A DNA stretch of 64,000 nucleotides from Amphiscolops sp. MND2022 (taxonomy: Eukaryota): NCBI GenBank assembly GCA_964187785.1, contig OZ076409.1:31002001-31066000 (forward strand). The letters are read 5' to 3'. The notes beneath the pieces are model-generated. The model did no database searches and was not told the origin of the DNA. It saw only the letters and a program-made list of their open reading frames with translations. The position numbers and the translations under genes were made by a program. Positions 4,874-42,041 of the stretch are shown piece by piece; the first letter of the stretch is position 1; the number at the start of each line of letters is the position of its first letter.

Positions 4874-5110
4874 TGTACTGACCTACATTAATAACCAATA
4901 GTATTTTAATGTTTATATAATGTACATTTATTTATTGAATGATTGTAAGTCTCTACTCCCTCAGAGAGAGAAAGTTAATAATCAGTATTTGGTTGACTTC
5001 CTTTTTGTTCTACTCTTACCATCAGAAATCTAGCTAGATAAACCTCGAATAAGCCTGTCTTAGTTAGTCTCTAAAATAACCACCACACAACTAAGAATTA
5101 AGGCAGCACA
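4874..5110 (+). repeat. 5' LTR (237 bp)
   Basis: TGTACTGACC...GGCAGCACA. Identical to the 3' LTR except one base (AAGTTAATAATC vs AAGTTATTAATC). Confidence 0.97.
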
Positions 5111-5113
5111 ATT

Positions 5114-5125
5114 TGGTGCGACTTG
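5114..5125 (+). promoter_or_regulatory. Putative primer-binding site
   Basis: TGGTGCGACTTG begins 3 nt after the 5' LTR; TGG is complementary to tRNA CCA. Cognate tRNA not identified. Confidence 0.7.
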
Positions 5126-5348
5126 TAAAAATTTTTCTTTTCGCCACTGAATGATTTCTCTTCTCTCAACAATACTACAAATACCACTCTCCATCTTTGA
5201 AATTCTTTGGAATTGCAGTGAAATTTTTCTAGAATTTCTTGAAAATTTAGTCTGTGACTTTCTGAATTTCATAAATAAATACATCATTGTTCGACATACA
5301 ATTTCTCCACTACAACAATTAATTCACATTTAACAAATTCTCTTCAAT

Positions 5349-5678
5349 ACCGGTTTATCACGTTTTCTAACACGTTGATACGGTTCTTCTTTCTGTTCTT
5401 CTTCTCACACCGGTTTATCACGTTTTCTAACACGTCGAAACGGTTTCATTTCAGACTGATTTATCCATTGTGACACAGTTCTGCTCCTCTTCTCTTTCCA
5501 GACTGATTTATCCACAAGTGACACAGTTCTGTTCTCTATACTGATTTATCACAGCTAATCCGGAAGCTTGTTGAAACAGTTCTTTGATGTTTGTCTGGTT
5601 TATCAAGGTTTTCTAACACCTTTGACACAGCAACATTTGTCTGGTTTATCAAGGTTTTCTAACACCTTTGACACAGCA
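5349..5678 (+). promoter_or_regulatory. Array of seven related RNA stem-loops in the 5' leader (candidate packaging/protein-binding signal)
   Basis: Seven copies of YGRTTTATC...GAHACRG enclosing hairpins. Inner stems covary (CGT/ACG vs GGT/ACC around TTTCTAAC). Confidence 0.55.
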
Positions 5679-6678
5679 AATTTCTTCGATCCTGCTATCT
5701 TGAACGTCAGGTGGACTCCTGGTGTAATAGTTGACTGAGTGCATGTCCAGCTTCGCTCACCTATAAGCACATACGTTTCAAGATCAACTTCGTGTTGGCA
5801 GAAAACCTGGATTTTCTACTTTTACGTTTTGGATCCATTTTCTACAAAAAGTTCGATAAAATAGTTTCAGAAATAGAATCTGAATACAAAAAAAAATAAG
5901 GCAACCAAGAATATCTATTACATACAACCAAGCCTCATTTCATTTCTTTCTTCTTGTCGACAAACAACACATATAATTCCCAATACTTAAACAACACATA
6001 AGCACATTCACAATTTTAACAACTGAGAAAAATAACTAACTTATACTTAAGTATATATTTCATACTTTTAACATAATTATACAAAACAATTATCTTAACA
6101 AATCTCCACATACACTCTTCACAACTCTTTCGCTTTAAAAGTAAGGCATGTAAATAAAAACCACACTGTAAAGGTAGTTTTCTATTTTCAGGCACCCGCA
6201 ATTCCTATCCCCTCCCGTAAGACTTAGACAATCAGACAGCTTTCCCAGCTTACTCTGATTCTAAGACTGACTAAAAACCTTAGTTAAGTGTAAACGTCAT
6301 TAAGGAGAATCGAGAGGACACCGAACTACGTTCGAATCTTCAAAATTCTCAGGAAGTAAAAGTAAAAGTAAAAGCAACGAAGATCAATCTTTGATCTTGA
6401 TCAGTATTGATCAGACTTTAGAAAGTGGACGTTGATTGTTCAGAGTTCCACTCCTTTAGTCTTAAAAAACCAAACTCACTTAAAATAAAATAACTTTAGT
6501 TTTCTGGATGTGTCAGTAACCTTATGTTAGACACTTTAGAGTAATCCAGACTTAAAATTTCATTTAGTTTCTGTTAGCAATCCTTTGAGGTTGAATACAG
6601 ATTCTACTGCATTCGCTTCTTTTTCTCTATCCAAAACTATTAACATCCCAAAGAACTTCAATATACAATACAAATTAT

Positions 6679-6852
6679 ATGATCCCTAACATATACAATC
6701 AACTTAATTATCCTTTCAATTTTTACATTCCGCCAATTAACTCACTTCAAAACCCTACCACAGAAGATTTTGAAAGACTAATTGAACGATATCAACAATA
6801 TTTTTTCTTTATTATACTTCACCAAAGACATTACCCAAGAGCTCCAACATAA
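6679..6852 (+). CDS. Putative 57-aa upstream ORF in the retroelement leader
   Basis: ATG...TAA, MIPNIYNQLNYPFNFYIPP...PRAPT. Below the ORF-track cutoff; A/T-ending codons like the element's long ORFs. Confidence 0.3.
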   Translation: MIPNIYNQLNYPFNFYIPPINSLQNPTTEDFERLIERYQQYFFFIILHQRHYPRAPT

Positions 6853-7018
6853 AATATTTCTACAAAAATTAATTTTAACGCTTTAATTTTCACATTATAA
6901 CATGTGGGAAAAAGTTACCACAGTAGTACTCATTACAACATACACGTTTTGTGTCTTATTTATAGTTTGTGTTCTTCTTGAAAAAATACTCACAGTAATA
7001 AGAGATAAACTTTAAAAT

Positions 7019-10000
7019 ATGTCTTTAGTAACAACCTTTCTACCTTTTCAAACACCCCTCATTAAAAATGCAAAAGTAGTAAAATTAGAATTAAACCCAT
7101 TTCTACAAAACATTATTTCACATTATACACAACCACTCCCATTTGAAAATGAACCCCATACACTCGAAACAATTCCTCTTATCAGAGAACATTTAGACAC
7201 TTACCTCTTCTATATCAGATATAAAGTTTTAACTATTACCACAGAATACCCCACTTTTCAAATATCCTTTCCTCAACAAGGACCTAATTCATCTCATATA
7301 TATAGAAGAACAATAAATCCTATAAATCTACAAGTTCCCATCAATCAAGTTTTTCACGCTTTTCTAAACAATGTAAAGGACCACAATCTAACAAATGATA
7401 CTCCAAGGTTTAGTCCAAATGCACTAGAAGATCTTGAACGATATATCAACAACTTCGATGTAGAGATTATTGAAAGAATAGTTAATCCTGAAGACAATCC
7501 TCATCATTGGTTACAAGCAGATATACTACGAATTCAAAACTTCATTTATCATTACTTCAAAGATTTAACATTAAATGATCAAACAATTTCTCAGATCAAA
7601 GTAATATCTTTATTTCTTAGAAAATACTTCAGATTTAATTATCAACTATTATGGTCACAACAAGATCAATCTGCTTTTACAGAATTTCCAGATCATTTTA
7701 CAGCAGACGAATGTTTACCATTCATCATCAATAAACAAAATGAAAATCCTTATTTTCATAAACCTCAATCAATTGCAAAACAAACTTTAGATTACATACG
7801 TTTTGATCCTCTACTAATTACAGAAAATATTACATTTCCAGACAATAGACCTTTTAGCTATGAACAAAGTTCTCAAGTCCAACAACATCTACATTCTAAT
7901 ATTAACAACCTTACTGAAAATGATAATACACCTCAGCAACAACATCAAAACGAACATGAAAACTATAATGAAAATGAATTTCCTACTCAAGAATCTACAA
8001 TTTCAACACATAATCCATCACAAACAGGAACTTCATCGGTACACACTCAATCATTTAGAGCTCCCACTAGAATTGTAGATCAAAGACGAAATACACGTAC
8101 TCCTCAATCCTCTTTGGATGCATCTCCAAATCGTAATATAACGTTCTTTATTCCAAACCCGGATGAAACACATGAAACACACGACGAAACTCATGATACT
8201 ATACAAGATGATGTTTTAACTACATCTATTGCTCAGAATACTTCTGTTAATGTTGCATCTCCAACAAGAACTATTCTTGATCCCACAAGATACATTACTC
8301 AATCTAGATATGATCCTCCATCAGTTCCTTCTATTTTCCGTTCAAATAGATCAGTTTCTTCAAATATCAATTACAATGAAAATCCTCAAACCTCAAATCA
8401 ACATTATGATCCGTTTAATTATAATTTTTATCCTTCATTTAATGCAACTACTAATACGAATATAAATCAAAATCATACCACTACAACACAAAATATACAT
8501 GCTCAAAATCAAGGAACTTCACATCCTTCTACATCTTATGCTCATGTTACACAAGCTCATCAAAGAAGACTTCAAAACCCTCCACTCACACGCATACCAA
8601 CTGATCCTTTATATCAAATGCATTCTAATCCAAATCCTAATCCTAATCCATTACCGCAAAATACAATTCAACATGTACCTCCTCAACACGCACAGCAATT
8701 AGCTACTCCTATTCAATATCTACCAATGCCACAAGATACTTTTATTAACATGTCCGCTTCAATACCAGAACCTATAAAACCTTTTGATGGTTTAGATCAC
8801 TCTTATACTCCAGAAGAATATTTACAACAAGTTGAAGCTAGATTAACCTTTGCCATAGGCGAAGAACCTCAAAATAATCCTATAAAATACAAATATTGGC
8901 ACAATAGACGCATGGCTTACATCCAATGTTCATTAACTGGAACAGCTCTCGATTGGTATACAAACCTTCATATATCTTATAAACAACAATGGAATTCCTT
9001 TGTACAACTATTCAAAAAACAATTTTCATCTCAAAAAACAGCTTACTACGCCCAAGTAGAAGCTATGTCACTCATGAAAAAGGACAATGAGACAGTACGC
9101 CATTTTGCTCTTAGAGTACAACAATTAGTTAAAAAAGGATGGTGTAATGAAAATACAGCTACAATAAACCTTAAAAATAATGAAATCTTCACAAAAGGAT
9201 TACCAAAAAAATTAAAAGATTTTGCCCATAAAAGACAAGTTAAACATGTATCAACATTACTTGAACCTTCGATACCATTTCACACACTTGTTAGACATGT
9301 TGATTCTGAAGACATTGCCAATGAGAAAATAAGAACTAATGACTTAGCTCTAGAAATAAACAAAGTATCGCTTGAAGATGATAACAGTAAAAAGGAATTT
9401 GAAAATGAAGATCATATAATGGTTACTCAATCTGGAGATCCAAATAACAAGAGCAAACCAGCTTATAGAAAATATTGTTCCTATTGTCACAAAAATAATC
9501 ATAGTATTTCAAATTGTTACCAAAAACAACGTGACGATGAATATCATAAACACAATAACCAAAGATCACGAACTCCTCAACAATCCTTTGTACAATATTT
9601 TCGTAGTAAACCTAATAATCCACAAGAAAATCAAAACAAGAATACAAATATTTACTCCTCAGACAACGATCGTAACAAATACAATCAAAATTACTTTAAC
9701 GATAGATATAGAGATAACGATAGATACCGCAGTAATAGTAGAGAAACTTTGCAAAACAACTATCGATCTAATTCTCGACAACGATATTACAATCGATCTC
9801 GAAGCCCATATAGATCTCGATTTGATAATTATTATCAAAGAAGAACTCCATCTAGATCTCCATATAGAACTCCATATAGAAATAACTCAAACTACAGATA
9901 TAACTCTCGCTCAAGATATAGATCACGTTCTCAATCACAAGAAAATTCCTTTAAACGATATAATCACCCATATAGATCTCCATCAAGACCTAGAGATTTT

Positions 10001-13000
10001 AGATCACGATCTAGAACACCCTCAAGAAACAGACAACAAAACAGAATAAATCAAGTAGATGTTAAAACCACAAAAGACAATGATAGTACAAAATTTGAAA
10101 TCCACACCTGTCAAACATCTGAAATAGCAAATACAATTACTCCTTATAGTTGGTTTTATCCACTATATGTTCACGCTTCTGAAACAAATGATAGTATATT
10201 ACCCACAAAATTAGAAATCTTATTCCTCTTAGATACTGGAGCATCTATATCCGTATTAAATTTACCAACATTCTACGTAATTTCCAAACAATTAAACATT
10301 AATGTTCCAACCAATCTTCAAAACCAAAGAGCCAAAACTCTTACAGTTGCAAATCAAACTGAAGTACCAATAATACATTATATTTCAATAACCTGTTTCA
10401 CTGAAGTAAATCATCAAACGCGATCCTTCAATATTGATTTCGCCGTAGCCAATATTAAATACAATATCCTTGGAACACCTTTTTTCAAAAACCACATCCA
10501 AAATATAGATTTTCAACAAAACGTTATGACTTACAAAGAACAACACTCAACTCTTCCAATAAAGACTACATTCTCTACATTTACAGAAAAAGATTACCCA
10601 TATATTTCTTATATTTACACGATTAAATGCAAAGAACCAATTCACTTTAAACCAAGGTCAGGAAAAACAATTTATTTCCCAATAAAAAACTACTCACACT
10701 TACACTTTGAACTCGAAGACAATACAAAATTTTATCCAACAAATCCATATACATATTTTTTACAAAAATTCAAAAATATCTTTCATTTCCTAGACATGAT
10801 GACCAATGACAAAAGCAAAGACTCTTGTGCAACAATAATTCAAAACTTTACATCTCAACCAGCTACATTACCACGAGGAATCATTGGATACATAGAAATA
10901 CCTATTACTCAAACAACTCCTTCTCACTATAGAGTTCATGATGTAAACTCACTCATTCACTCTGTAATACATGCGTATCATCCTGATATCACAACTCCGA
11001 TTAAACCAAATCCATATACAGATATGAACTTATGCACTAGAGTAACACCACAGTCTCTATTAGAAATAAACAAGATAGAAATAAAGGATAAAACACTTCA
11101 ACTTCCTATTCCTTCTGTTATTGGAAACCTTCAACCCTCAGATAAAATTCGAAAAGATTTTCCTCCTTTACCCTATTCTACAGAAAATCAACAATTTATA
11201 AAAAAGTTTAACTTTGAATACTCAGATTTAACTGATACTGAATATGTGAACCTGTGTAATATTTTAATCAATAATCAACATTGCTACGCCAAACATAAAA
11301 ACGATGTAGGAAAAATTTCTACTCCCTTTCGAATTAGAATAAAAGACAACTGTAAACTTCATACACAAAGACCTTCTAAAGTACCAATTCATTATAGAGA
11401 TAGACTAAATAAACTTTTACAAGAACTCGAAAAATACAATATAATCAAACAAATTGGTTCAAAGACAGATGAAAAACATACAATTGGAACAACATTTTTA
11501 AATCCTCTAATAATTATCCCAAAAGGAGATTCAATAAAGGTAGTTTTAGATGCAAGACATTTAAACTCAAACACCAACCAAGAACTTGAATCTTGGCCTA
11601 TTGAACCTTTGGCTCCTCAGTTAGCAAGAGCTAATAAAAAATACAAATCAACCATTGATCTAATGTATGCATATGCTCATACACCATTAGACGAAGAAAC
11701 AATTAAACTTACAGGATTCTCATCAGGTGACAAACTATATGCCTTTATCCGTGGATTCTATGGATTAAAAGGACTTCCAAACTTTTTCACAAAACAAATG
11801 TCAACTTTCTTCAGATCACTTATAGACAAACGTTCTGCATTAGTTTATATCGATGATATTTTACTACTCGCTAATGAAAAACAAGAAATGTTTGAACTTA
11901 TAAAAGAATTACATATAATAGCATCTAGAGAAAATCTTAAACTTGCACCCGAAAAATCATTTTATATGTTACTCAAAGTCAAATTCCTTGGACATGAAAT
12001 TGGCAACAATACCATCAAACCAATTCCATCCAAAATCGAAGCTATTAAACGAATTCCATCACCAAAAGAAAAGAAAGATGTTATGCAATTTCTTGGCAGT
12101 GTTAATTTCTATTCAAAGTTCATTGAAAAACTTCATATAAATCTTAAACCATTGTATACACTATTGCATGACGACGTCAAATTCCAATGGACACCTGAAT
12201 TGGAAGCAATATTTCAAAATGTTAAAAATGCAATGACAGCAGACACTGAATTAACAATACCCAATACAACAAATCCATTTTTCATAACAGTAGATGCCTC
12301 GTTAGTTGGTTTAGGCGCAGTCTTATTCCAAATGAATGAAGAAAACAAAATGAAAGTAATCTCTTATAACTCAAGAATTCTTAACACACAAGAACAAAAG
12401 CTTTCAACTTTAGACAGAGAACTCCTCGCAATAGTTTACGCATTACAAATATATGAATTTTTGATCATCGGATCCCCTCATCCTATATACCTTTTTACAG
12501 ATCACAAACCTTTACTACATTGTTTCGCAAAGAAAGGAAATCTTAGTCCTAGATTCTATAGAGCACAAATGCAACTAACCAAATTCTCCAAACTGAAAAT
12601 CATTCATACACCTGGAAAAAACTTAACTGTAGCAGATATGCTTTCACGAACCTTTACAAAAGAACAATTACAAGTCCATCAATTACGTCACAAACAATTA
12701 CCACCTCAAATAGAATTCTCTATCTTGAAAGACAATCAAATCAAACCAGTACATTATCTAGTAAAGCATGAAGAAATTAAATATAACCAGAAGAATGACT
12801 GTCATCCTATCCTTGCTGATTATGGAGACGACCAATTCTCAATCCGCATTAATAACAAAGGAGAAGATATTCACATAAAGCCTTTAGACTCATTCTCTTT
12901 TCAATCTATTGTTCCATTTGAATCAAAGTATAAAAGGCCTACAAAAAATCAAGCAAAATCTCTTTTACAACAATCGACAATTCTTAATGATACTGATATT

Positions 13001-14980
13001 CTCAGTGATGAAGATGAACCAACTCAATCTAATAATGTTCAATACCAAACAAAAGAACATACATTTGCTATACAATATCCAACTAAATCTGATTACTGTA
13101 AACAACAAGTTCCATTTTTTGACCCGTCCTTCTTCAAATACAAAAAATATTTTAATTATTTTTTTCTACCAGAAAATACACAAATAACCATTGAAACAAT
13201 AAAAACCCAACAAAACCAAGACACTGTTTTACAAAAAGTTTATCAATGGATTCTTAATAATGAAAGACCTTCACAAATAGATCCAACAATTGCAGCTAAT
13301 TCTTTCTTATTAGTATATTATAAAATTTTCAATCAATTATACATTAACCATGATACAAAAATTATCCACATAGACTACCCTAATCTTCACGATTCCAATC
13401 CAAATCAAAGAGACAAAATATGTCTACCATTTAAACTCTTTTACGCAGCTTTCAACAAACTTCACGCCCATGGACATTCAGGAATAAAAATATCCATCAA
13501 AGCTTTTAACCAATTTTATTTCATACCCTACTTGAATAAATGGATGTCAATATTCATTCATGATTGTATCGAATGTCAACAAAATAAACATATTAACCAA
13601 AAACTACAAACTGCATCAGTACAAACATTCTCAGAAAACGCTTCATACTTCAATTACAGAATATCAATGGATACAAAAGGACCTATAAATCCACCATCAA
13701 ACCAAAATTCATACATTCATGTTATAGTTGACGCTTTTAGCCACTTTGTAGTAACAGTACCAATAAAACAAAACAATGCTCAAAATGCTGTTAACTCATT
13801 ACTACATCATTGGATAACAAAATTCGGACCTCCTGTATATTTAGTTACCGACCGTGGAACAGAATATATCAACTCAGAATTTGCAAATCTTTGTACCACA
13901 ATGGGAATTAGACATTCACCAAGAACTCCTTATGCACCATGGACTAATGGTCTAGTTGAAAATCAAAACAGAAATCTTGGAACTCATCTTAGACTTTTTT
14001 TACATAATACTCCGGAAAACTGGTCTACTCAAGTTCACATGTATGCTTATGCACATAATTCACAACCACTTTCTGAAATCAACTTATCTCCATATGAAAT
14101 AGTATTTCATACTATGCCAAGAATTCCTATCAATTTTGAACTTAACCTTCACAGAGATACATATAGAAATTGTACTTCTCAATATTGTCAAGAATTACCA
14201 CTTCATACACACTATGATAAATCAGACTTAAACCCTTTCTTTCATAAAATTCTATCTAAACCAATACCACAATGGATCTTAGCTACTGAAACTGCTATGA
14301 TACAAATATACCATACAGTATATGAAAACATAAAAAGAAAAATAAATTCCTACGCTTATTTTAACAAAACATACCACAATCCGAGACCTTTGGATATTGG
14401 TACATTTGTACTAAAAAGAAATTTCCTCCATGTTCATTTTTCAGACAAATTAAAACCTCTTCGAATTGGACCATTCAAAATTATTAATAAAATTTCCGAC
14501 ATAACATATGAAATTGTTAGCCAAGATGGGTATACATCTCACATACATAGAAATCATTTAATTCCTTATTACCCAAAGGAACCAACTATTTTCCCCTTCT
14601 TACAACAGTATAATCCACAGTTATTCAATGATAGACATTCAAATGTAAACAATCAAACAACTAATTCCGATGAAAATCAATCTAGCGACGAAGATCAATT
14701 TTATTCCACAACATCTAATAAAAAAACGGATATACCATCCACAATTAACTTCCAATCAGAACCATTCAGTCATTATTCTTCATTTCCGTACCAACAAAAA
14801 GAACAAATCCCTCAAAATATCAGCTTAGATAACCAATCAGATATTCATGACTATGACAATTTTATTAATCCTCGAAGACACTCCTCTAATAGATACAATT
14901 TCCGCCCACAACCAAGAAAAGATTATCGACTCTTTCTTGGTGAAAAGGATATAAATTCACTTTCTCAAAATTCCTGCTGA
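7019..14980 (+). CDS. gag-pol: Gag-Pol polyprotein, single frame, 2653 aa
   Basis: Capsid-like region from PIKPFDG (~8770); CCHC knuckle CSYCHKNNHSISNC (9476-9517); RS-rich tract; protease LLDTGAS (~10232); RT YIDD (11846-11857); RNase H DAS...RELLA...TDHKPL...ADMLSR; integrase H-H-C-C, D (SMDTKG), D (TDRG), E (GLVE); GPF motif. Confidence 0.97.
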   Translation: MSLVTTFLPFQTPLIKNAKVVKLELNPFLQNIISHYTQPLPFENEPHTLETIPLIREHLDTYLFYIRYKVLTITTEYPTFQISFPQQGPNSSHIYRRTINPINLQVPINQVFHAFLNNVKDHNLTNDTPRFSPNALEDLERYINNFDVEIIERIVNPEDNPHHWLQADILRIQNFIYHYFKDLTLNDQTISQIKVISLFLRKYFRFNYQLLWSQQDQSAFTEFPDHFTADECLPFIINKQNENPYFHKPQSIAKQTLDYIRFDPLLITENITFPDNRPFSYEQSSQVQQHLHSNINNLTENDNTPQQQHQNEHENYNENEFPTQESTISTHNPSQTGTSSVHTQSFRAPTRIVDQRRNTRTPQSSLDASPNRNITFFIPNPDETHETHDETHDTIQDDVLTTSIAQNTSVNVASPTRTILDPTRYITQSRYDPPSVPSIFRSNRSVSSNINYNENPQTSNQHYDPFNYNFYPSFNATTNTNINQNHTTTTQNIHAQNQGTSHPSTSYAHVTQAHQRRLQNPPLTRIPTDPLYQMHSNPNPNPNPLPQNTIQHVPPQHAQQLATPIQYLPMPQDTFINMSASIPEPIKPFDGLDHSYTPEEYLQQVEARLTFAIGEEPQNNPIKYKYWHNRRMAYIQCSLTGTALDWYTNLHISYKQQWNSFVQLFKKQFSSQKTAYYAQVEAMSLMKKDNETVRHFALRVQQLVKKGWCNENTATINLKNNEIFTKGLPKKLKDFAHKRQVKHVSTLLEPSIPFHTLVRHVDSEDIANEKIRTNDLALEINKVSLEDDNSKKEFENEDHIMVTQSGDPNNKSKPAYRKYCSYCHKNNHSISNCYQKQRDDEYHKHNNQRSRTPQQSFVQYFRSKPNNPQENQNKNTNIYSSDNDRNKYNQNYFNDRYRDNDRYRSNSRETLQNNYRSNSRQRYYNRSRSPYRSRFDNYYQRRTPSRSPYRTPYRNNSNYRYNSRSRYRSRSQSQENSFKRYNHPYRSPSRPRDFRSRSRTPSRNRQQNRINQVDVKTTKDNDSTKFEIHTCQTSEIANTITPYSWFYPLYVHASETNDSILPTKLEILFLLDTGASISVLNLPTFYVISKQLNINVPTNLQNQRAKTLTVANQTEVPIIHYISITCFTEVNHQTRSFNIDFAVANIKYNILGTPFFKNHIQNIDFQQNVMTYKEQHSTLPIKTTFSTFTEKDYPYISYIYTIKCKEPIHFKPRSGKTIYFPIKNYSHLHFELEDNTKFYPTNPYTYFLQKFKNIFHFLDMMTNDKSKDSCATIIQNFTSQPATLPRGIIGYIEIPITQTTPSHYRVHDVNSLIHSVIHAYHPDITTPIKPNPYTDMNLCTRVTPQSLLEINKIEIKDKTLQLPIPSVIGNLQPSDKIRKDFPPLPYSTENQQFIKKFNFEYSDLTDTEYVNLCNILINNQHCYAKHKNDVGKISTPFRIRIKDNCKLHTQRPSKVPIHYRDRLNKLLQELEKYNIIKQIGSKTDEKHTIGTTFLNPLIIIPKGDSIKVVLDARHLNSNTNQELESWPIEPLAPQLARANKKYKSTIDLMYAYAHTPLDEETIKLTGFSSGDKLYAFIRGFYGLKGLPNFFTKQMSTFFRSLIDKRSALVYIDDILLLANEKQEMFELIKELHIIASRENLKLAPEKSFYMLLKVKFLGHEIGNNTIKPIPSKIEAIKRIPSPKEKKDVMQFLGSVNFYSKFIEKLHINLKPLYTLLHDDVKFQWTPELEAIFQNVKNAMTADTELTIPNTTNPFFITVDASLVGLGAVLFQMNEENKMKVISYNSRILNTQEQKLSTLDRELLAIVYALQIYEFLIIGSPHPIYLFTDHKPLLHCFAKKGNLSPRFYRAQMQLTKFSKLKIIHTPGKNLTVADMLSRTFTKEQLQVHQLRHKQLPPQIEFSILKDNQIKPVHYLVKHEEIKYNQKNDCHPILADYGDDQFSIRINNKGEDIHIKPLDSFSFQSIVPFESKYKRPTKNQAKSLLQQSTILNDTDILSDEDEPTQSNNVQYQTKEHTFAIQYPTKSDYCKQQVPFFDPSFFKYKKYFNYFFLPENTQITIETIKTQQNQDTVLQKVYQWILNNERPSQIDPTIAANSFLLVYYKIFNQLYINHDTKIIHIDYPNLHDSNPNQRDKICLPFKLFYAAFNKLHAHGHSGIKISIKAFNQFYFIPYLNKWMSIFIHDCIECQQNKHINQKLQTASVQTFSENASYFNYRISMDTKGPINPPSNQNSYIHVIVDAFSHFVVTVPIKQNNAQNAVNSLLHHWITKFGPPVYLVTDRGTEYINSEFANLCTTMGIRHSPRTPYAPWTNGLVENQNRNLGTHLRLFLHNTPENWSTQVHMYAYAHNSQPLSEINLSPYEIVFHTMPRIPINFELNLHRDTYRNCTSQYCQELPLHTHYDKSDLNPFFHKILSKPIPQWILATETAMIQIYHTVYENIKRKINSYAYFNKTYHNPRPLDIGTFVLKRNFLHVHFSDKLKPLRIGPFKIINKISDITYEIVSQDGYTSHIHRNHLIPYYPKEPTIFPFLQQYNPQLFNDRHSNVNNQTTNSDENQSSDEDQFYSTTSNKKTDIPSTINFQSEPFSHYSSFPYQQKEQIPQNISLDNQSDIHDYDNFINPRRHSSNRYNFRPQPRKDYRLFLGEKDINSLSQNSC

Positions 14981-15100
14981 AATACGGAATACAGGAAAAA
15001 TACATAGAAAATTTTTTGGAAGAGAAAGCTTGAAGATTAATGTGGAATTGAATGAAAAGTATTTCACAAGTGATAATACACGGAAGAAATTTGAAAATAA

Positions 15101-16573
15101 ACTTTTATAATTAAACCAAACTACCATAACAAAAATTTCAAGATTGATAGACATATTCACTCACCATCATCAACTACAAATAACTCATCTTCTAGTTCAA
15201 CACATTCACTCCAAAGATTACCTGAATATACAGCATATTTAGATACAGATACAGACATACTGGATTCCTCATCCTCAAATCCTAGCCCATCTGCTCCATA
15301 TACTCCTGATAGAGCACCAACAACACCCACCAATACACCTATAACTCCAACTCAATCACAACCTATCTCAAGAAATCAAACATTTGAAGAAACAAATTCA
15401 CCAGCTTCTACCTATAGTGATGAATCACTTACAACACCAAATACACAAGATACCTCAAATATCTTAAATAGACCTCCTCTTCCACCAATTACTACTACTC
15501 GTTCTGTTCATATTCCTGATCCAAGTTCAGTATTACAATACATAAATACTTGTCCACATAAAATACCTACAGCAACAAAAACAAAAAGAAAACCTCCTTT
15601 ACCTACATTAACACAAAACCCTAATTTACCATCATCAAGTAACACTCCAATAACATTTTTACCAGAACCTTCATTAAAAACACCAACAGAAAAACTACAA
15701 CAATACCCAACACCTTCACCGAGTGAACTAAGTTCATTCACATTTTCTCAATTATATCCTAAACTCGAATTGCAACGTGTAAATTCAACTACTTCTTCTT
15801 TAACAGATCTATACAATAAAGATAAAGATTCTGACTCCACTGCTAGTACTAGAGTACCGAGACATAGTTATAATCTTCGATCTCAACAACAGAGAAACTC
15901 TCAAGAATTACAATCTTTAACAAGTTCAAATACAAACTCCAGACTACTTAGACAACACGCTCAACCTAGACTGGACACTTCTTCTCTTTCCTCATCTCAA
16001 CCTACTATACCATCTTCCTTGTCACTACCATTTCAAATCACATCAGGATTTGAAACAGCTTCTCTTATATCTGAAGACCCAGCAACTATATCAGATACCG
16101 CAGCCAATTTCTCACGAGTTTATTCACCCAGTTCAATTGCATCAAACTCTTCTATTCAATTACTTGAATATTTTCTAGAAGATTTTTCAAGACCTCCAAC
16201 ACCAAACCCTGACGAATATCCCATTCGTGTTAACTCAAAAATTGTCCGTACGTTACACGAAGATCCTCGATATACAGTCTTACCTGTAAGATTTATAAAT
16301 AACAGCTCACTCTCAACTCAAAGAAAACAAAGAGAATTAAGAAGATTACAAGAACAACAACTCACATTAAAATTTGAAGTAGAAGTAACTTTCAACTCTT
16401 TAGGACCTCATCCGTTTTCCCTTTCAACAAGAGTAGCACACAAAACAACTCCATCACCATTCATAGTAACTTCCATTTCTTATCTTTGTGACGCAGACCT
16501 ACCCGAAATTAGAACGGGACATATAAACTTTTTTAATCCTTACTCCGGACTTAATTATAGAACAATATTTTAA
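15101..16573 (+). CDS. AUG-free 490-codon ORF (S/T/P-rich N-part, structured-looking C-part), putative accessory/matrix-like protein
   Basis: Manual translation shows the frame of the track's 15770-16573 ORF is open back to the TAA at 15098-15100. No Met anywhere. Contains PSAP and LYPKL. Confidence 0.7.
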   Translation, partial: TFIIKPNYHNKNFKIDRHIHSPSSTTNNSSSSSTHSLQRLPEYTAYLDTDTDILDSSSSNPSPSAPYTPDRAPTTPTNTPITPTQSQPISRNQTFEETNSPASTYSDESLTTPNTQDTSNILNRPPLPPITTTRSVHIPDPSSVLQYINTCPHKIPTATKTKRKPPLPTLTQNPNLPSSSNTPITFLPEPSLKTPTEKLQQYPTPSPSELSSFTFSQLYPKLELQRVNSTTSSLTDLYNKDKDSDSTASTRVPRHSYNLRSQQQRNSQELQSLTSSNTNSRLLRQHAQPRLDTSSLSSSQPTIPSSLSLPFQITSGFETASLISEDPATISDTAANFSRVYSPSSIASNSSIQLLEYFLEDFSRPPTPNPDEYPIRVNSKIVRTLHEDPRYTVLPVRFINNSSLSTQRKQRELRRLQEQQLTLKFEVEVTFNSLGPHPFSLSTRVAHKTTPSPFIVTSISYLCDADLPEIRTGHINFFNPYSGLNYRTIF

Positions 16574-16602
16574 CTATAGAAATATTAACTGGTACTTTAA
16601 CA

Positions 16603-19173
16603 ATGAACCAAATCATCTTTCCCTTTTATTTACTGAGTATAATACAAGCTATCAAATACACATATATAATTCATACAGTTCTCTCCTTAGTTTATTCTTC
16701 AAATGTTCCTAAAGTTGACACAACAAATCCTGAAAACCATATCTCAGATCAAGATCCTAACATTTTAAACTTAATGGTATCCCATTATGATTGTGCAAAA
16801 CAAAATAATTTAAGACAGTTTAGTTTACTAAATGTTGAACCATGTAAACAAGCACCCTCAGATATACAACACGCAAAAACCCAAGCAACAGTTTATGTTA
16901 GAGCAAAAGCCAAAAGAATAAAAGCTTTTAAATGTGAAGCATACATAAAGACTGAAAAAGTCTGGTGTTCACAAACATTTACATCTAGTAGACGATATGA
17001 TCGTTTACAATGGGGACAAAACACATTAGAACTTCCAAAAATATTGGACCCTATTGAATGCAAAAATATGATAAGATATTTAAACGCGACTGATAGCGAA
17101 GAATTAAACAATTACAATATACAAAGCTCTTTCTCATTATTCGGCGATAGTAACTATCAAAACACAATTGAACGAATCCAAACACCATTTAGAGTAACAA
17201 AATTAAATACATGGCATATTGGAACCTTCGTATTTGATGAAAATTATCCCGACTGGATAGTTAATGTTACACAAAACACATACTCTAGATGTCGATCAGA
17301 CCGAGAACATTTAATTACCCGACAAAGTTGGAAACTTAGAATTGTTAATACTGCAATAGACTATGACGACAAAAACAATCAATTAATACATGATGGACAT
17401 ATATTACCATGCTACCATTCAGATGGATTTTGTAAACCAACAACTAAAACTCCTTATACATTAACATGGTTTGATGAAAAATTTTGTCTCATATTTCAAC
17501 TTCAAGAATTTATTGGTAGAATGACACGAATCAAAGATCGATATTGGATAGAAACCGATACCTTTATTGAAACTTCAAATATCACACAAAAACTCCAAAC
17601 CGAAGGAATACAAGGGACACGATATCCCAATGTGAAAACACCACAATCGAAAATAAGCAATCCAAGTCTTTCTCGATTTGAAATATACCCAATTGCACAA
17701 ACCTTTTGTGGAAAACCTGAGCCATTATTCTCAACACAATATGATGATATTTTTGTTACATATTTAGATGGTTTTGATATGAACACAGGATTACCCAAAC
17801 CACACTCAATAATCGATCAAACAATTAGTGGAAACATAAAATATGATAACTCAAATAAAAAGTATATATTCCCCGCATTGAATATATCAAACAATTTCGC
17901 CACTTTAGATTATGATGCCCACATAAATACAAAAATTGATTTTACAATAAATCATGTATTCAAATCCATGACAGTACAAGAACTAAACACTCTTCATACT
18001 ATATGTGAACTAGAAAGAACTCAATTGTTAACAATCTTAGCTATGTCAGTTAAAAACCCTCAATTAGCCGGTTTTCTTTTAACTGGAAATCGTAGTAACT
18101 TTCTTTACGTTGAAGGATCTACAGCATGGCTGTATGATTGCCCTCATTTTATATCCCCACTATACAAGGCAGATAAATGCTTTGATAGAATTCCCATACA
18201 CTATAGAGAAACAATAATGTATGTTGATCCTATAACAAGACAAACTTTTAACTATGCCACACCAATTGAATGTGGAAATAATCCACAAAATATAATCGAA
18301 TTGGACCCAGACTCAAATGACGGAGATTTTTATGTGTTAACACCAGAACCACTTAAACGAGAAGCTCCACAAATGTTTAAACCTACCCAAATTAAAACAA
18401 CAATTACTCCTAATACATTCACCGCCCAAGATGCTGGTATATACTCAAATGCAGAATTAGATCAATTCTGGAACAGAGTATTATTTGCTAAACATTCAGA
18501 CACAACCCTTCAATTACTTGGAAAATCATTGAGCTATGATTTTATTTCAGTACATAATGATAAACATTCATACTCAGGACATAATCCTTATAATCATTTA
18601 AGGATTGGAGTACACGACCACTTGTTAAATCTTTTACCACTTTTTAACCCCGACTGGTTTAGTCAAGCATTCATTAATTTCTTTGGATATCCATGCTATG
18701 TTTTAACACAATGTGGAATTTATTTTTCAACATTTCTTTTCATTAGAGAAATTTTAACATTCTTACTCAAATTTTATAGAACAATTAGTATAAAATATAA
18801 TCTCCAAAGCAACATTTCCATTTTGAGTTCAATAGCCCATGGATTTTTTAATATAGTTACATCGGAAATGGTTACCGATTTAAACAATACAGGAAAACGA
18901 AAACGGATATATACTAAACATAAAATCACAACAAGTGAAAATGATAATATCCTATTGCCGGAAAAAGATGTAAAAAGAAAATACTCTGATAATGACTCCC
19001 CTTATTTACCTCCTAAATATTCCAGTAAGAATTCAACATTTCAATCACCGCAAAAGACACACCCAACTACTATCAACGATATTAATTCTCAGGACTATGA
19101 CCCAGTATTGCCGAATATAATAACTATACCGGAAAGCCCTGCTAAAGTCTTCATAAAATTTAACCCCACCTAG
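16603..19173 (+). CDS. env: Envelope glycoprotein, class III fusogen-like (herpes gB / chuvirus G type), 856 aa
   Basis: Hydrophobic N-terminus, many Cys and N-x-S/T sequons, pattern ICELER...NPQLAG...G...WLYDC...CFDRIPI...YVDPITR...PIEC, C-terminal hydrophobic TM region and cytoplasmic tail. Located downstream of pol. Confidence 0.8.
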   Translation: MNQIIFPFYLLSIIQAIKYTYIIHTVLSLVYSSNVPKVDTTNPENHISDQDPNILNLMVSHYDCAKQNNLRQFSLLNVEPCKQAPSDIQHAKTQATVYVRAKAKRIKAFKCEAYIKTEKVWCSQTFTSSRRYDRLQWGQNTLELPKILDPIECKNMIRYLNATDSEELNNYNIQSSFSLFGDSNYQNTIERIQTPFRVTKLNTWHIGTFVFDENYPDWIVNVTQNTYSRCRSDREHLITRQSWKLRIVNTAIDYDDKNNQLIHDGHILPCYHSDGFCKPTTKTPYTLTWFDEKFCLIFQLQEFIGRMTRIKDRYWIETDTFIETSNITQKLQTEGIQGTRYPNVKTPQSKISNPSLSRFEIYPIAQTFCGKPEPLFSTQYDDIFVTYLDGFDMNTGLPKPHSIIDQTISGNIKYDNSNKKYIFPALNISNNFATLDYDAHINTKIDFTINHVFKSMTVQELNTLHTICELERTQLLTILAMSVKNPQLAGFLLTGNRSNFLYVEGSTAWLYDCPHFISPLYKADKCFDRIPIHYRETIMYVDPITRQTFNYATPIECGNNPQNIIELDPDSNDGDFYVLTPEPLKREAPQMFKPTQIKTTITPNTFTAQDAGIYSNAELDQFWNRVLFAKHSDTTLQLLGKSLSYDFISVHNDKHSYSGHNPYNHLRIGVHDHLLNLLPLFNPDWFSQAFINFFGYPCYVLTQCGIYFSTFLFIREILTFLLKFYRTISIKYNLQSNISILSSIAHGFFNIVTSEMVTDLNNTGKRKRIYTKHKITTSENDNILLPEKDVKRKYSDNDSPYLPPKYSSKNSTFQSPQKTHPTTINDINSQDYDPVLPNIITIPESPAKVFIKFNPT

Positions 19174-19624
19174 CAAAAAGAACTAACTTAATAAACAAAT
19201 TAACCTCTGAAAAAGTTCAGAATATTATTAATAAAATTCTTCTCAGCTTAACTTTCATTCAAACCCAAATTCTCACCCGGACCAGTTCTTCCTTTTTAAC
19301 TGAAAGAAATTTCACTCTATCACAACTCAGCCCTCATCTTCTATCACAACTCAGCCTTCAACCAGAAGACTTCAATTGGATTTCCACTCCATCTAGAAGA
19401 CCAAAACAACAGAAGTTTCTATTCCGGGAATAGATACCACTGTGATTGTTGATGTTTTCAACCAACCATTGATTCAATATTCCATAGTGTAAGTACAATT
19501 TAAACTTAAATTTTAACAAATTAATGGATAAAAAGGATATAACACTAATTTTGTCTAGTACCAGACCTAGTATCATTAGAAATTATAATTATTTTAGCTC
19601 TACAAAAACACGCAAGTCTAAATA

Positions 19625-20932
19625 ATGGAATCCTCGCCTGAAATTGATGTAGTAAATTCTACTCCCTCTGAATTGCTTGCACCCCCTTTGAATATAACTA
19701 TTCAACAAAATGTCAACAAAGAAAATAATTCTTCTTTTAACTCTCAAGATCCCATAGAAACTATTCCTGTTGAACAAATAGATTATGTTAACGCAAGATC
19801 TCAAAAGAGAAAATACCCAGATATAACTGCAGATAAACCTTTTATGGAATCTGGCGCTTGTCCTCCATTCATAAAACCAATGAAACAGGATGAAGATAGA
19901 GATTGTGAATTAGTTCCTATTCTCTCATCAAAACAATTCACCTTTCAATCTCATTTAACTTCATTATATATGATTCCAACAAAATACAAATTCATCATTC
20001 GAGAATTTCGAAATGATTATCATACATCAATTGCTTCAAAATTGATAACCCCATATGATTGGTGGTTAAATAATAAAGTGAAAATTTTCTCATTACAATA
20101 CAACTTCCTCAGACCATCGCCATACGATCTTCGAACCGAAGAAAATGATGCAAACTTCTTGCCATATCAAATTAAAAAGGCTCATCATATAACGTATCAA
20201 AAGTTTCTCCAATATAAAGAGCCCGATAATTACATATTCTTCAACTCCAAATACACCTCGCCATTCATTCTCAACTCAGAATATTTAATAGATCATACTA
20301 AAACCAAAGGAAAACTTAGAAATTATGATCCACTGAAACAAAGTTTCCTATTTCTTCCAAATGATAACCCAAAAAGACCAATCATTGTTCCGCAAGAATA
20401 CCTCATTTTGAACGACGATCCATTATTACAAGAAGATATTCCTCAACAGATACACGATCCTCTTCCTCCACTTCAACAAATAGCCTCTCAACCTTTGGGA
20501 GATTGTGAAAAATCTTATTTCTATGCAATGACCAAAAAGGGATATTCAAATAATGAATTAATTTTCATTATTTCTCACCTACTATCACTTCTTACAAATG
20601 GGAATTATAACGAAAAGATTCATAAAGAACATAAAAAATCAAAACAAGAATCACCAAAGAAGATAAAAAAGGATACTCCTCAACCACAACATTTTCGCCC
20701 AACAGAAGAATTGCAGAAATATACAGAAATTCTGAATATTATAAAACCTTATCACCATTCGAACCGAGATATTCTTACAACAATTGTCGAAATTGTAAAT
20801 GCCCTTGAACAAGCTCGAAGCATAATACAAAATATCGTATTTGATACGACCAGAATTAGCCAATCAGCTTTGTGTATTCGCACATCATTGGACGAATTCA
20901 ACTATACAATTGAAAAAATGCATCGATCTTAA
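19625..20932 (+). CDS. Accessory ORF of unknown function, 435 aa
   Basis: Uninterrupted ATG-TAA ORF inside the LTR element; predicted-looking helical C-terminus; no family recognised. Confidence 0.75.
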   Translation: MESSPEIDVVNSTPSELLAPPLNITIQQNVNKENNSSFNSQDPIETIPVEQIDYVNARSQKRKYPDITADKPFMESGACPPFIKPMKQDEDRDCELVPILSSKQFTFQSHLTSLYMIPTKYKFIIREFRNDYHTSIASKLITPYDWWLNNKVKIFSLQYNFLRPSPYDLRTEENDANFLPYQIKKAHHITYQKFLQYKEPDNYIFFNSKYTSPFILNSEYLIDHTKTKGKLRNYDPLKQSFLFLPNDNPKRPIIVPQEYLILNDDPLLQEDIPQQIHDPLPPLQQIASQPLGDCEKSYFYAMTKKGYSNNELIFIISHLLSLLTNGNYNEKIHKEHKKSKQESPKKIKKDTPQPQHFRPTEELQKYTEILNIIKPYHHSNRDILTTIVEIVNALEQARSIIQNIVFDTTRISQSALCIRTSLDEFNYTIEKMHRS

Positions 20933-21455
20933 CTGGTAATTATCGGATAATAACTTTAAGAGATAAGTGTTACCACTCTTAATCCCTTAACAACCTGTCA
21001 AAATTAATTGAGTCTACACGTATATGCATGTTATGCATGATTTAATATATGCTTGATGTTAAAATACACTTTAAATTTAAATAATAACTAAAATTTTCAA
21101 AAGCGACATAAAAAATTTTAACAAAATTTAGAATTTGCTCCTCCTTTTAATGGACCGATTTCAACAAATAAGTACACATATGAAAGATATTTAAATACCC
21201 TTCAAAAGACTTCCAAAATACAGCAACTTAATTCTTAAAATTAAAAAGTTATAACATCATAGATTACAACAAAAAAAATGTCAACTATGAAATTCAATTT
21301 TAAAGAGAAATTTAATGTAAACAAACTAATCTATTTTAGGTGAATATCGCAGAAACTGCTTCTTCAGCATTCCTTCTATCTTCGAACCTTCCATCCAAAG
21401 GGAACTTCATCAGCTATTCTCAAATTTCCAAAAGAATTCTTCATTTCATTTCAAA

Positions 21456-21932
21456 ATGACCACTATCCATACTGGCGAAACAGACTGCCCCATAGCTCCT
21501 TTGCTTTCCATTTCATCAGCTCGACTACGATCCTTAATCCTGAAAAAGCATTTAACAACATTAAATGCACAGCTAAAAACAGACAAAAAGGCAAATCCCC
21601 ATCTTACAAGGATGATATTGCTTAATATGTTCCAAATATTCCAGATAACAAAAATAAATTTCGACCAGTACCTCAATATTCACAGACATCCAGATACAAA
21701 TTCAACCCAACGAGACGCCGCTACCCAAACGGAACATACTACCATAAAACCCAAACGTTTTCTATGCAATCTGACAAATAGAATACGTTCTGAAATGGAA
21801 AAACAACATTTGAATTCCTATTGGCCTTCAGATGATAACGCCGATACGGATGAAGAACTTCAAAAAGACCCACCCGAAGCAGTTCTAGATGACAACAACC
21901 CATTCAAAACATATACTTACGTCTCTTTCTAG
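21456..21932 (+). CDS. Accessory ORF, 158 aa (frame open from 21330; possible spliced second exon)
   Basis: ATG-TAG ORF with an RDAATQT motif. Upstream CTAAT...TTTTAG acceptor-like signal at 21326-21339 lies at the start of the open frame. Confidence 0.55.
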   Translation: MTTIHTGETDCPIAPLLSISSARLRSLILKKHLTTLNAQLKTDKKANPHLTRMILLNMFQIFQITKINFDQYLNIHRHPDTNSTQRDAATQTEHTTIKPKRFLCNLTNRIRSEMEKQHLNSYWPSDDNADTDEELQKDPPEAVLDDNNPFKTYTYVSF

Positions 21933-21943
21933 CTTCAAATTGA

Positions 21944-22112
21944 CATCTTCGGCACCCATCTTCCATCTTCAGCACCCATCTTCAGCACCCAACTTCAGCA
22001 CCCGTCTTCAGCACCCATCTTCAACAAGCACCCATCTTCAACTTCATTGACGCCAACTGACCCATTTTCGCCCATCTTCCAATCTTCCAATCTTCAATCT
22101 TCAATCTTCAAT
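21944..22112 (+). repeat. Short tandem repeats in the element 3' UTR (13-bp CATCTTCAGCACC and 7-bp TCTTCAA)
   Basis: Directly visible tandem copies. Confidence 0.85.
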
Positions 22113-22937
22113 CGTCCAACCGAAGATAATTAATTAGCAAGAATAAAGAAACTCAAAAGCAAAGAAAAAACACTGTGCATGATAATATTTAGAAATATAT
22201 TAGAAAACATTCGCAGTATGTATTTTATTTTATTTTAAAGTTCCCCCCCCTTATTTATTTGCCCATAAAATCCAATTTCAGCCCAGACCGATATTTATTT
22301 GCTCTCATTTTTAATGAATAATTATTATTTTTCGGTGCTATTCCATCCAGATATACAATATATGTTAACAAAATTTTTTTCCTCTCAAATTTCAACAAAA
22401 CTAGTTCAAAATTAGATCAAGCACATTGTTCAACTCAGATTTGAATAATGATAGACCTAAATTCTCGAAGTTTTCAACACTTCTTACATAACAAACCCGC
22501 CAAAGTTAATCACAACCTGATATCATTTCAGAAAGTTTTCACACATAAAAGATTTTTTTGTCAACAAAATTTTTCAATGACTCTTTAACCTCTAACTCGT
22601 ATGATGTTTTCTCACGTTTGTTCAATGCGAAGTTATTCCAAAAACTTCAACAGAAACATAAATTAAGCATCTACCAGTTCAAAAAACAAGCCGACGAAAG
22701 CATAGTGAAAAAGAACACTGTGACGCTTTTGAACTGTTAGTCGCACCTACGAGGTGTCAATCAAAATTTTAACAATTCGAGGTAGATCAATGAGTCGAAC
22801 TTACACAACTCTTAAAGAGACTTATGCCAATCATCCATCAAATGAAAAATGTTAACTAGCTGGAACGCTAAAAACATATAAACAAAAATTTTTTATTATT
22901 TTATTTAATGATGTTATTGTAAAATTTTATTTTATTT

Positions 22938-22952
22938 AAAAACCGGGATGGA
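22938..22952 (+). promoter_or_regulatory. Putative polypurine tract
   Basis: AAAAACCGGGATGGA directly abuts the 3' LTR; purine-rich but imperfect. Confidence 0.55.
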
Positions 22953-23189
22953 TGTACTGACCTACATTAATAACCAATAGTATTTTAATGTTTATATAAT
23001 GTACATTTATTTATTGAATGATTGTAAGTCTCTACTCCCTCAGAGAGAGAAAGTTATTAATCAGTATTTGGTTGACTTCCTTTTTGTTCTACTCTTACCA
23101 TCAGAAATCTAGCTAGATAAACCTCGAATAAGCCTGTCTTAGTTAGTCTCTAAAATAACCACCACACAACTAAGAATTAAGGCAGCACA
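22953..23189 (+). repeat. 3' LTR (237 bp)
   Basis: Copy of 4874-5110 followed by the CAAC duplication. Confidence 0.97.
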
Positions 23190-24720: not shown

Positions 24721-24721
24721 T

Positions 24722-30420: not shown

Positions 30421-30864
30421 CAGTGCTGTGCTTATGTGGCTTAATTATGTTACTCATTGTCGATAGTTCATTGACACAAGTTTCACAGTAATTTTTCTGG
30501 CACACTGATTGGTTTTATGGACGTTCCATGGGAGGTATTTCATTGAGTATCTTGCTCGCATTGCCAAAGTAAACACAGCCAGTGCTGCGCTTGAAGAGCT
30601 CAATCATCGTCGAAATTCTATCTTTGCCATTTTCATTCAAAATTTTTCCCAGAGCTTTATAGGAGGCAAGCCCTGCCCAAATCCATTTGGCCCTAAATAC
30701 GAGGTTTCAGCGTTACCCGGAACCATGGTAAAAGCGTCTTTATGAATTGGAATTAGTCCGAATTGAAGCATGGACAGTCAGAAAAAACTAGGTGCCACAG
30801 CGCTGCAAGCTGCAGAGCCTCCTTACAGTAACAATAACGGTCCCCTGAATGAAACAAGCATCAG

Positions 30865-42023: not shown

Positions 42024-42041
42024 ATTATACCTAAATAAATA

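Follow-up and report, generated by a model that had tools for sequence, protein, structure and literature searches.

Env-bearing Ty3/Gypsy retrotransposons with an envelope gene of the gB type are a described class, widespread in invertebrates (PMC13524379). The 'ancient errantiviruses' of that survey (Chary and Hayashi, eLife 2026) combine a Ty3/Gypsy pol, the order gag-pol-env, a chuvirus/gB-like env and many near-identical copies. Extra open reading frames (ORFs), lying between pol and env or downstream of env, are also on record (review PMC6431247), and Cer1 of C. elegans is a Ty3/Gypsy element with a Rev-like protein, CERV, which is non-structural, lineage-specific and made from a spliced RNA (PMC10309623). 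Starting translation from a non-AUG codon in strong context followed by scanning of an AUG-free stretch is known from rice tungro bacilliform virus (Caulimoviridae), where about 1 kb without AUG is scanned to the downstream ORF, and from several RNA viruses (PMC5902531, PMC3542737). We describe an 18.3-kb element of Amphiscolops sp. MND2022, contained in a stretch of 64 kb that we call the window (positions 31002001-31066000 of contig OZ076409.1, in a genome of 1.07 Gb). It differs from the ancient errantiviruses by its length of 18 kb, its fused gag-pol of 2653 aa, an ORF between pol and env and two more after env (PMC13524379). The ORF between pol and env, ORF2, has no AUG and probably starts at a conserved CUG. 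The main features of the element are the following.

4874-23189, + strand: whole element, 18.3 kb, Ty3/Gypsy
4870..4873, + strand: 5' target-site duplication CAAC (empty site in three sibling repeat units)
4874..5110, + strand: 5' long terminal repeat (LTR), 237 bp, TG...CA
5111..7018, + strand: leader of 1.9 kb with donor- and acceptor-like motifs, AUG-poor (4.2 per kb)
7019..14980, + strand: fused frame for gag, protease (PR), reverse transcriptase (RT), RNaseH and integrase (IN), 2653 aa, with one CCHC knuckle, LDTGA and YIDD (Pfam and motif scan)
15260..16573, + strand: ORF2, 437 aa from the proposed CUG (frame open from 15101)
15263..16602, + strand: AUG-depleted stretch from the CUG to the env AUG, with one out-of-frame AUG that opens an upstream ORF of 15 codons
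16603..19173, + strand: env, 856 aa, jingchuvirus/gB-type fusion glycoprotein (PF24664, E 3.6e-25; frame 16561-19173)
19625..20932, + strand: ORF4, 435 aa, of no known family (an acceptor-like AG ahead of it ends at 19597)
21456..21932, + strand: ORF5, 158 aa from its ATG, fast-evolving (frame open from 21330)
22953..23189, + strand: 3' LTR, 237 bp, TG...CA
23190..23193, + strand: 3' target-site duplication CAAC

A preliminary description made from the letters alone had proposed a very recent insertion of an 18.3-kb Ty3/Gypsy element with five open frames on one strand, 237-bp LTRs differing at one base and a CAAC duplication, and all of this is borne out. The single LTR mismatch lies at LTR position 105, CAAC is present at both ends, and three sibling units of the enclosing 1.17-1.32-kb tandem repeat have the unoccupied site with a single CAAC. 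The five frames (+ strand, 7016-14980, 15101-16573, 16561-19173, 19622-20932 and 21330-21932) run without an internal stop over 2654, 490, 870, 436 and 200 codons, respectively. All five are open as described, but ORF2 contains no ATG and ORF5 measures 158 codons from its first ATG.

The family is multi-copy. In a genome search with the env DNA, 34 of the 40 matches listed, the window included, reach at least 99% identity, a lower bound for the number of copies at this level, and two whole copies that we compared are 99.3-99.5% identical. ORF4 is open in 34/34 young copies (among 97 rows listed), ORF2 in 31/32 (among 87 rows listed) and ORF5 in 28 of the 29 full-length young copies (among 150 rows), at least five more young copies having a shortened ORF5. 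Using distant env and ORF4 proteins as baits, we retrieved 24 other copies (both halves in 16, just the 3' half in 8), which form families A/A2, B/B2, C/C2 and D. RT identity to the window is 71-79% in B, C and D, and in B and C the identity is 53-60% for env, 31-40% for ORF2 and 33-40% for ORF4. The gene order gag-pol, ORF2, env, ORF4, fifth ORF is kept in nearly all copies of families A, B, C and D; in the decayed copies L009, L015, L034 and L038 the fifth frame is absent at a cut-off of 140 codons. LTR pairs, 97-100% identical, are present in 15/16 two-half copies, copy lengths are 17.7-18.8 kb, and most sister copies show 4-bp target duplications. For family D, at least 90 copies of ORF4 at 98-99% identity were counted. 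In trees of RT, env, ORF4 and ORF2 (9-10 rows, leaving out C2 and other broken copies), A+A2 and B+B2 group separately from C and D each time, an agreement that is a weak test because there are three groups only.

Selection on the frames was measured as pairwise ratios of nonsynonymous to synonymous substitution rates (dN/dS) between real copies of A/A2, B/B2, C/D and C/C2. In this order, dN/dS is 0.14, 0.08, 0.15 and 0.13 for ORF2 and 0.09, 0.05, 0.13 and 0.13 for ORF4, beside 0.07-0.09 for env and 0.08-0.11 for gag-pol. For ORF5, values of 0.17 and 0.26 (A/A2) and 0.32 (B/B2) were obtained, C/D and C/C2 giving no estimate. A sixth, 209-codon frame at 9420-10049, in the +1 register relative to gag, served as negative control; we rejected it as a by-product of composition, with a dN/dS of 1.75 (confidence interval 0.91-3.38). 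These results indicate that purifying selection on ORF2 and ORF4 is as strong as on pol, and that on ORF5 it is weaker but clear; the extra ORFs are therefore neither junk nor nested insertions. One could still argue that they are neutral passengers, frames open through composition or nested insertions, since ORF2 is of low complexity and without AUG and since the frame within gag shows that genuinely spurious frames of this size exist. This is contradicted by the dN/dS values, which stay far under 1 for ORF2 and ORF4 (four independent comparisons) and for ORF5 (two family pairs), by the fixed position of the extra ORFs in all families, and by full-length ORF4 relatives at 33-48% identity on other contigs (P0314, P0316, P0317, P0320 and P0321). 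For ORF2 and ORF4 the neutral explanation is already refuted by dN/dS, and for the extra ORFs together we give it almost no credence. The preliminary description had taken these ORFs as integral and had proposed a genome-wide copy search with dN/dS for each; both were carried out, and neither absence or neutral evolution in sister families nor nested insertion was found. We regard the five-gene anatomy with selected extra genes as practically certain: the element is a young copy from a Ty3/Gypsy clade that amplified recently and carries a gB-type env together with three clade-specific extra genes.

The strongest unusual feature, which goes beyond what had been claimed for this DNA, is the AUG-less ORF2 with its conserved CUG. 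An in-frame ATG is absent from ORF2 in 21/22 unbroken copies, the exception being the decayed copy L009. In 22/22 copies with an unbroken frame, A stands at -3 of the first in-frame CTG and GAT is the next codon; the broken-frame copies L017, L025 and L039 carry the same A-n-n-CUG-GAU site, which brings the count to 25/25. Because these copies are related, they amount to nearer four to six independent lineages. The synonymous divergence (dS) between B/B2 and C/D is 0.9-1.5, so that a silent site should have changed. CTG makes up 1-2% of the Leu codons in these elements, and none with a purine at -3 and G at +4 was found among ~15,300 codons of gag-pol, env and ORF4. In the other invariant Leu columns (n=122), only 5 use one codon across six lineages, and none of these is CTG. 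The genuine AUG starts of the elements have A or G at -3 in 13/16 cases.

Downstream of this codon, AUG is depleted as far as the env start. The distance from the CTG to the env ATG is 1.16-1.36 kb across copies. Intact copies have 0-3 ATGs there and one decayed copy has 4; most of these stand in weak context or open frames of 1-17 codons, while the ATG density in the other ORFs is 14-18 per kb. No testable triplet is more depleted than ATG in the ORF2 region of the window (1 seen vs 27.9 expected). Out-of-frame ATGs number 1-2 in the real sequences vs 5-10 in codon shuffles of ORF2, with P 0.034 or less in 9/10 retrieved copies. Taken as sequence patterns, these results point to an ORF2 initiated at CUG and an env translated from the same mRNA by leaky scanning, a reading that we consider likely.

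Several points weigh against it. One codon-shuffle test, that of L017, falls short of significance (P 0.066), a few AUGs persist between the CUG and env, one of them in family B with A at -3, and a stable hairpin after the CUG was not found (0 to -6.5 kcal/mol). Family A keeps ~40 open and conserved codons upstream of the CUG, which makes an upstream exon or an earlier start possible there, and an acceptor common to all families before ORF2 was not found, such a motif being present in 4/7 only. Alternatively, ORF2 could belong to a spliced gene as its 3' exon, the AUG being upstream (for example in gag), with env on a spliced RNA of its own and CTGGAT an RNA signal or plain Leu-Asp. CERV of Cer1 is built in this way (PMC10309623), the ORF2 frames are open for 6-53 codons upstream of the CTG, and this stretch is conserved in family A. 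Such an exon would explain neither why out-of-frame AUGs have been lost over 1.2-1.4 kb in each family nor the A-3/G+4 context of the CTG; moreover, no in-phase acceptor common to the families was found and the similarity of the ORF2 proteins across families starts at about the CTG. We therefore hold the spliced exon to be quite unlikely.

In the scheme that we favor, with CUG initiation and leaky scanning, the full-length RNA would be scanned through the AUG-poor leader and yield one Gag-Pol polyprotein. A subgenomic RNA, probably spliced, would start shortly upstream of 15260; on it, a minority of ribosomes would initiate at the CUG (A at -3, G at +4) and produce ORF2, and the remaining ribosomes would scan ~1.3 kb almost free of AUG to reach the env AUG. 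ORF2 and Env, sharing an RNA, would therefore be made together at a set ratio. ORF4 and ORF5 would be expressed from RNAs of their own, via acceptors just upstream of their AUGs. Splice motifs were judged by the general consensus, which is not fitted to this host. The gap separating the start from the last upstream ATG contains an acceptor-like motif in 7/7 cases for ORF5, 5/6 for ORF4 and the 4/7 mentioned above for ORF2, an excess over background (51/486) that is only suggestive because the background gaps are shorter. In the window, an acceptor-like AG with a branch-point motif ends at 21339, ahead of ORF5. The spacer between ORF4 and ORF5 is not AUG-poor (11 ATGs in 407 nt), and ORF5 is therefore unreachable by scanning. 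No RNA containing 15101-22000 was listed, which carries no information about expression.

The ORF2-env RNA might also arise otherwise than by splicing in cis, that is, from an internal promoter, by trans-splicing or by reinitiation after pol, with the CUG and leaky scanning unaffected. Foamy viruses, for instance, use an internal promoter. Such an origin would fit the missing universal acceptor before ORF2, the failure to find a strong donor common to the family leaders, and the conservation between A and A2, which begins abruptly ~130 nt before the CUG. In families B and B2, on the other side, the last upstream AUG is closely followed by a T-rich acceptor-like AG, from which the sequence up to the CUG is free of AUG; acceptor-like sites also precede ORF4 and ORF5. 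We judge these other origins unlikely, though far from negligible.

The composition of the ORF2 protein is 35-40% S/T/P across families (40% in the window), without a transmembrane segment, and it is mostly disordered except for a conserved C-terminal domain of ~130 aa ending in a small beta-sheet. In the predicted model, mean pLDDT is 40, and the C-terminal domain reaches 56-75 in its better blocks. The fold search gave no clear fold match (best Z 4.0) and no viral match at E 0.001 or better, and the C-terminal domain was found in a longer protein in 0/147 candidates, which is weak evidence. ORF2, ORF4 and ORF5 have no Pfam family above cut-off, PDB profile matches for ORF2 and ORF4 were at E 0.02 or worse only and were taken as chance, and ORF2 and ORF4 show no similarity to each other. 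The disordered part of ORF2 contains H-x-Y-N-L-R, invariant across families, and the integrase tails of all families, as well as that of the related metagenome contig L041 described below, end in Y-x-L/F-R.

15869..15880, + strand: Y-N-L-R in ORF2, invariant in 7/7 alignment rows and present also in family D
14894-14905, + strand: Y-N-F-R-P in the C-terminal tail of gag-pol

The same Y-N-L-R core is found in Gag of prototype foamy virus (PFV) at 537-540 (PMC12125541), within GGYNLRPR, of which Y537 and R540 contact H2A-H2B (PMC12125541, PMC6042332). By this likeness, ORF2 could be a disordered adaptor that binds the nucleosome acidic patch via Y-N-L-R and aids incoming cores at chromatin, a suggestion to which we give slightly less than an even chance. 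Two points count against it: Y-x-L-R is a motif of 4 residues only, and the folds of ORF2 and of ORF4 (mean pLDDT 40 and 36) are of low confidence.

Env matches PF24664, the Monjiviricetes fusion glycoprotein, above cut-off in 4/4 families. The protein of the window has 16 Cys, 9 N-glycosylation sequons and a hydrophobic segment at ~704-722; across families there are 16-18 Cys, 9-12 sequons and a C-terminal hydrophobic segment, which reaches threshold in 3/4 families. An R-x-K/R-R furin site was not found in Env, its comparison with PDB sequences gave 0 matches, and viral contigs searched with env, P0013 or RT gave no match. By analogy with fly errantiviruses, Env would pass particles between cells, most plausibly from soma to germ line, and we find this somewhat more probable than not. 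Conversely, the element might stay in the cell, env and the extra proteins having intracellular or host-interaction roles; the lack of a furin site and a sub-lineage that spread with env broken at the same place would agree with this. Env is full length in four families under a constraint like that on pol (dN/dS 0.07-0.09), gB-type env is described as having a furin site that is 'not always conserved' (PMC13524379), and we consider the intracellular alternative rather improbable. In the sub-lineage in question, C2, a break at the same place splits env in two: a frame of 424-425 codons and, overlapping it, a frame with the rest.

L017:2030-4296 and L019:2026-4775: C2 broken env copies

The overlapping frames were seen in these 2 retrieved copies, and the 424-425-codon frame occurs in ~49/121 listed rows by hand count. 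Both env halves of C2 show dN/dS of 0.07-0.08 against family C. C2 may be a spreading env-defective lineage, or the break may be a recoding site.

Neither ORF4 nor ORF5 has a transmembrane segment. In the model of ORF4 (mean pLDDT 36), the best part is residues 210-265, predicted as a possible SH3/Tudor/KOW-like barrel (~210-265) in addition to C-terminal helices. The fold search with ORF4 gave a best Z of 7.8 (root-mean-square deviation 2.3 over 54 residues). SH3/KOW/Tudor barrels, which residues 210-265 resemble at Z about 7, tied with helical hairpins; the arrangement is a common one, and there was no viral match at E 0.001 or better. ORF4 might be a soluble nucleic-acid- or chromatin-binding regulator, which we put forward as a doubtful assignment. 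ORF4 is also found rearranged: it is duplicated internally in L009 (5134-6426 and 8300-9592), and in some copies (e.g. the 5' parts of L002, L014 and L020) it is duplicated or fragments of other family members adjoin.

ORF5 is homologous within A/A2, B/B2 and C/D. Between families A, B and C it is not clearly homologous (16-20% identity), and ORF5 is therefore perhaps shared in position only. A T/V-Q-T motif was seen in ORF5 of A/A2 (window ~21700-21730) and in both post-env ORFs of L041, and was not seen in ORF5 of B, C or D. We take it to resemble the binding sites of the dynein light chain LC8.

Jingchuviruses have the gene order G, N, small protein, and env-ORF4-ORF5 could be a block captured whole from such a virus. 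Env does match the Monjiviricetes fusion family, and ORF4 is like the nucleoprotein in size and position. ORF4 is, however, without a Pfam match above cut-off, and a relative with a 31% identical env carries two different post-env ORFs. A captured block is thus very improbable in our view.

That relative is the metagenome contig L041 (JAAUYE010140917.1), with pol 34-37% and env 31% identical, two post-env ORFs and Y-x-L-R in the pol tail. It differs in that its gag and pol frames are separate, no ORF lies between pol and env, and its post-env ORFs (9651-10757 and 11157-12095) are paralogous to each other (35% identity across 188 aa, coiled coils at the C-terminus) and unrelated to ORF4/5: neither ORF4 nor ORF5 shows similarity to them, and they have no family above cut-off. 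Since L041 has two post-env ORFs and lacks ORF2, 3' extra genes are perhaps a habit of a wider lineage and ORF2 special to this clade.

The Pfam order in gag-pol is Retrotrans_gag, RVT_1, RT_RNaseH, Integrase_H2C2, rve and SH3_Tf2-1, the protease being recognized from its motif. A PDB search with gag-pol gave Ty3 Gag-Pol as best match (E 8.7e-55), ahead of 8r0s 'Enzymatic polyprotein' (3.7e-26), foamy Pol (8e-18) and the MLV type (1.5e-11); that the RT is closer to Ty3 than to retroviruses is read from this ranked similarity rather than from a tree with named references. The element has the TG...CA LTRs, 4-bp duplication, primer-binding site (PBS), polypurine tract (PPT) and domain order of Ty3/Gypsy (Metaviridae). 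It has a separate chuvirus/gB-type env after pol with a membrane anchor and multiple copies at more than 98% identity, as gB-type errantiviruses do. It lacks the retroviral RT and class I env of Retroviridae, and instead of the F-type baculovirus/paramyxovirus-like env of Drosophila-type errantiviruses (gypsy, ZAM) its env matches PF24664 only. With complex retroviruses it shares extra genes kept by selection beside env, as a functional likeness only. The element is a Ty3/Gypsy member that works like a gB-type errantivirus, outside Retroviridae and the F-type fly errantiviruses. Troyka was rejected as a relative on termini and duplication length (PMC12440569).

Foamy viruses and lentiviruses likewise have extra genes around env and dicistronic env RNAs such as vpu-env (PMC5902531), whereas here the RT is Ty3-like and env is gB-type, not class I. 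Pfam and PDB profile searches found no homology of the extra ORFs to lentiviral or foamy accessory genes; the likeness to complex retroviruses is convergent. Among other large or extra-ORF Ty3/Gypsy elements, the extras of Burro (planarian), Ogre/Tat, rotifer ORF3 and Drosophila sORF2 are polyprotein domains, single captured enzymes or short membrane peptides (PMC6431247, PMC5408684, PMC11952523), in contrast to ORF2, ORF4 and ORF5, which have neither transmembrane segment nor family match. In Cer1, CERV occupies the env position with no recognized env there, one extra gene is present instead of three, and the accessible text mentions no non-AUG start (PMC10309623). Rice tungro bacilliform virus and the RNA viruses differ in being a non-integrating plant pararetrovirus or RNA viruses, the downstream product here being the envelope protein of an LTR retrotransposon.

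The preliminary description had spoken of an undescribed complex type. This stands for the five-ORF clade, which is unreported in the literature searched, and not for its components, as gB env, extra ORFs and a Rev-like protein are on record (PMC13524379, PMC6431247, PMC10309623). No report of the five-ORF clade, or of CUG leaky scanning to env in an LTR retrotransposon, was found in full-text literature outside subscription papers, Repbase entries and bioRxiv supplements. Env-bearing invertebrate retrotransposons are usually treated as simple three-gene elements, and the largest survey was filtered on such a layout: its first filter allowed at most 1,000 nt from POL to ENV, where the pol-env gap here is 1.6 kb, and regions no longer than 10 kb, to which 3-5 kb were later added for some groups (PMC13524379). 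Its main text uses neither 'accessory' nor 'extra ORF', and the first of 34 parts of its element table has LTR-to-LTR spans up to ~12.6 kb, longer ones being possible elsewhere (PMC13524379). A whole clade here retains three further genes under selection and adds two conserved protein domains without known family. If the CUG start is real, it represents a non-AUG bicistronic env strategy for which no report in any LTR retrotransposon was found, and since such a start escapes AUG-based annotation, similar genes may be missed elsewhere. On the evidence of the sequences, the clade may be an invertebrate counterpart of complex retroviruses that arose independently in Ty3/Gypsy, with env leaky-scanned behind a CUG-initiated chromatin tether with a foamy-type arginine anchor, two more regulatory proteins on their own spliced RNAs and several families amplifying in one animal genome; for this reading as a whole our confidence stays somewhat below the midpoint. 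The clade is a natural comparison for the evolution of 'complex' organization and of acidic-patch tethering outside Retroviridae.

Two further features adjoin the LTRs.

5114..5122, + strand: PBS core TGGTGCGAC, common to all sister families
22938..22952, + strand: purine-rich tract adjoining the 3' LTR, an atypical PPT; a similar A-rich/CCGG tract is present in all families

The core TGGTGCGAC matched none of the PBS or tRNA ends in the accessible PBS table of PMC13524379, and the 64-kb window contains no tRNA genes. The element sits in an array (window 1-4873 and 23190-24600) of tandem units of 1170-1318 bp with internal inverted repeats. This repeat was rejected as a preferred target, as 0/12 other copies carry it on their 3' flank. 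Window 24500-30600 holds a higher-order tandem array with a 1642-bp unit made of 494- and 1149-bp sub-units, in three copies at 98% and partly related to the array upstream, followed at 30830-33720 by a satellite of 29 bp (~56 copies, higher-order period 180 bp). A tandem duplication of 935 bp at 53049-54926 has an open frame of 157-233 codons per copy, with no Pfam match in the one frame tested. At 58373-62503 (- strand) lies a Helitron-like element in fragments, with PIF1 helicase and an endonuclease/exonuclease/phosphatase domain, the Helitron_like_N match being below cut-off. Finally, window 41434-42653 contains two short frames of 155 and 204 codons without a Pfam match, the first of which resembles, by eye, a C-terminal fragment of an integrase.

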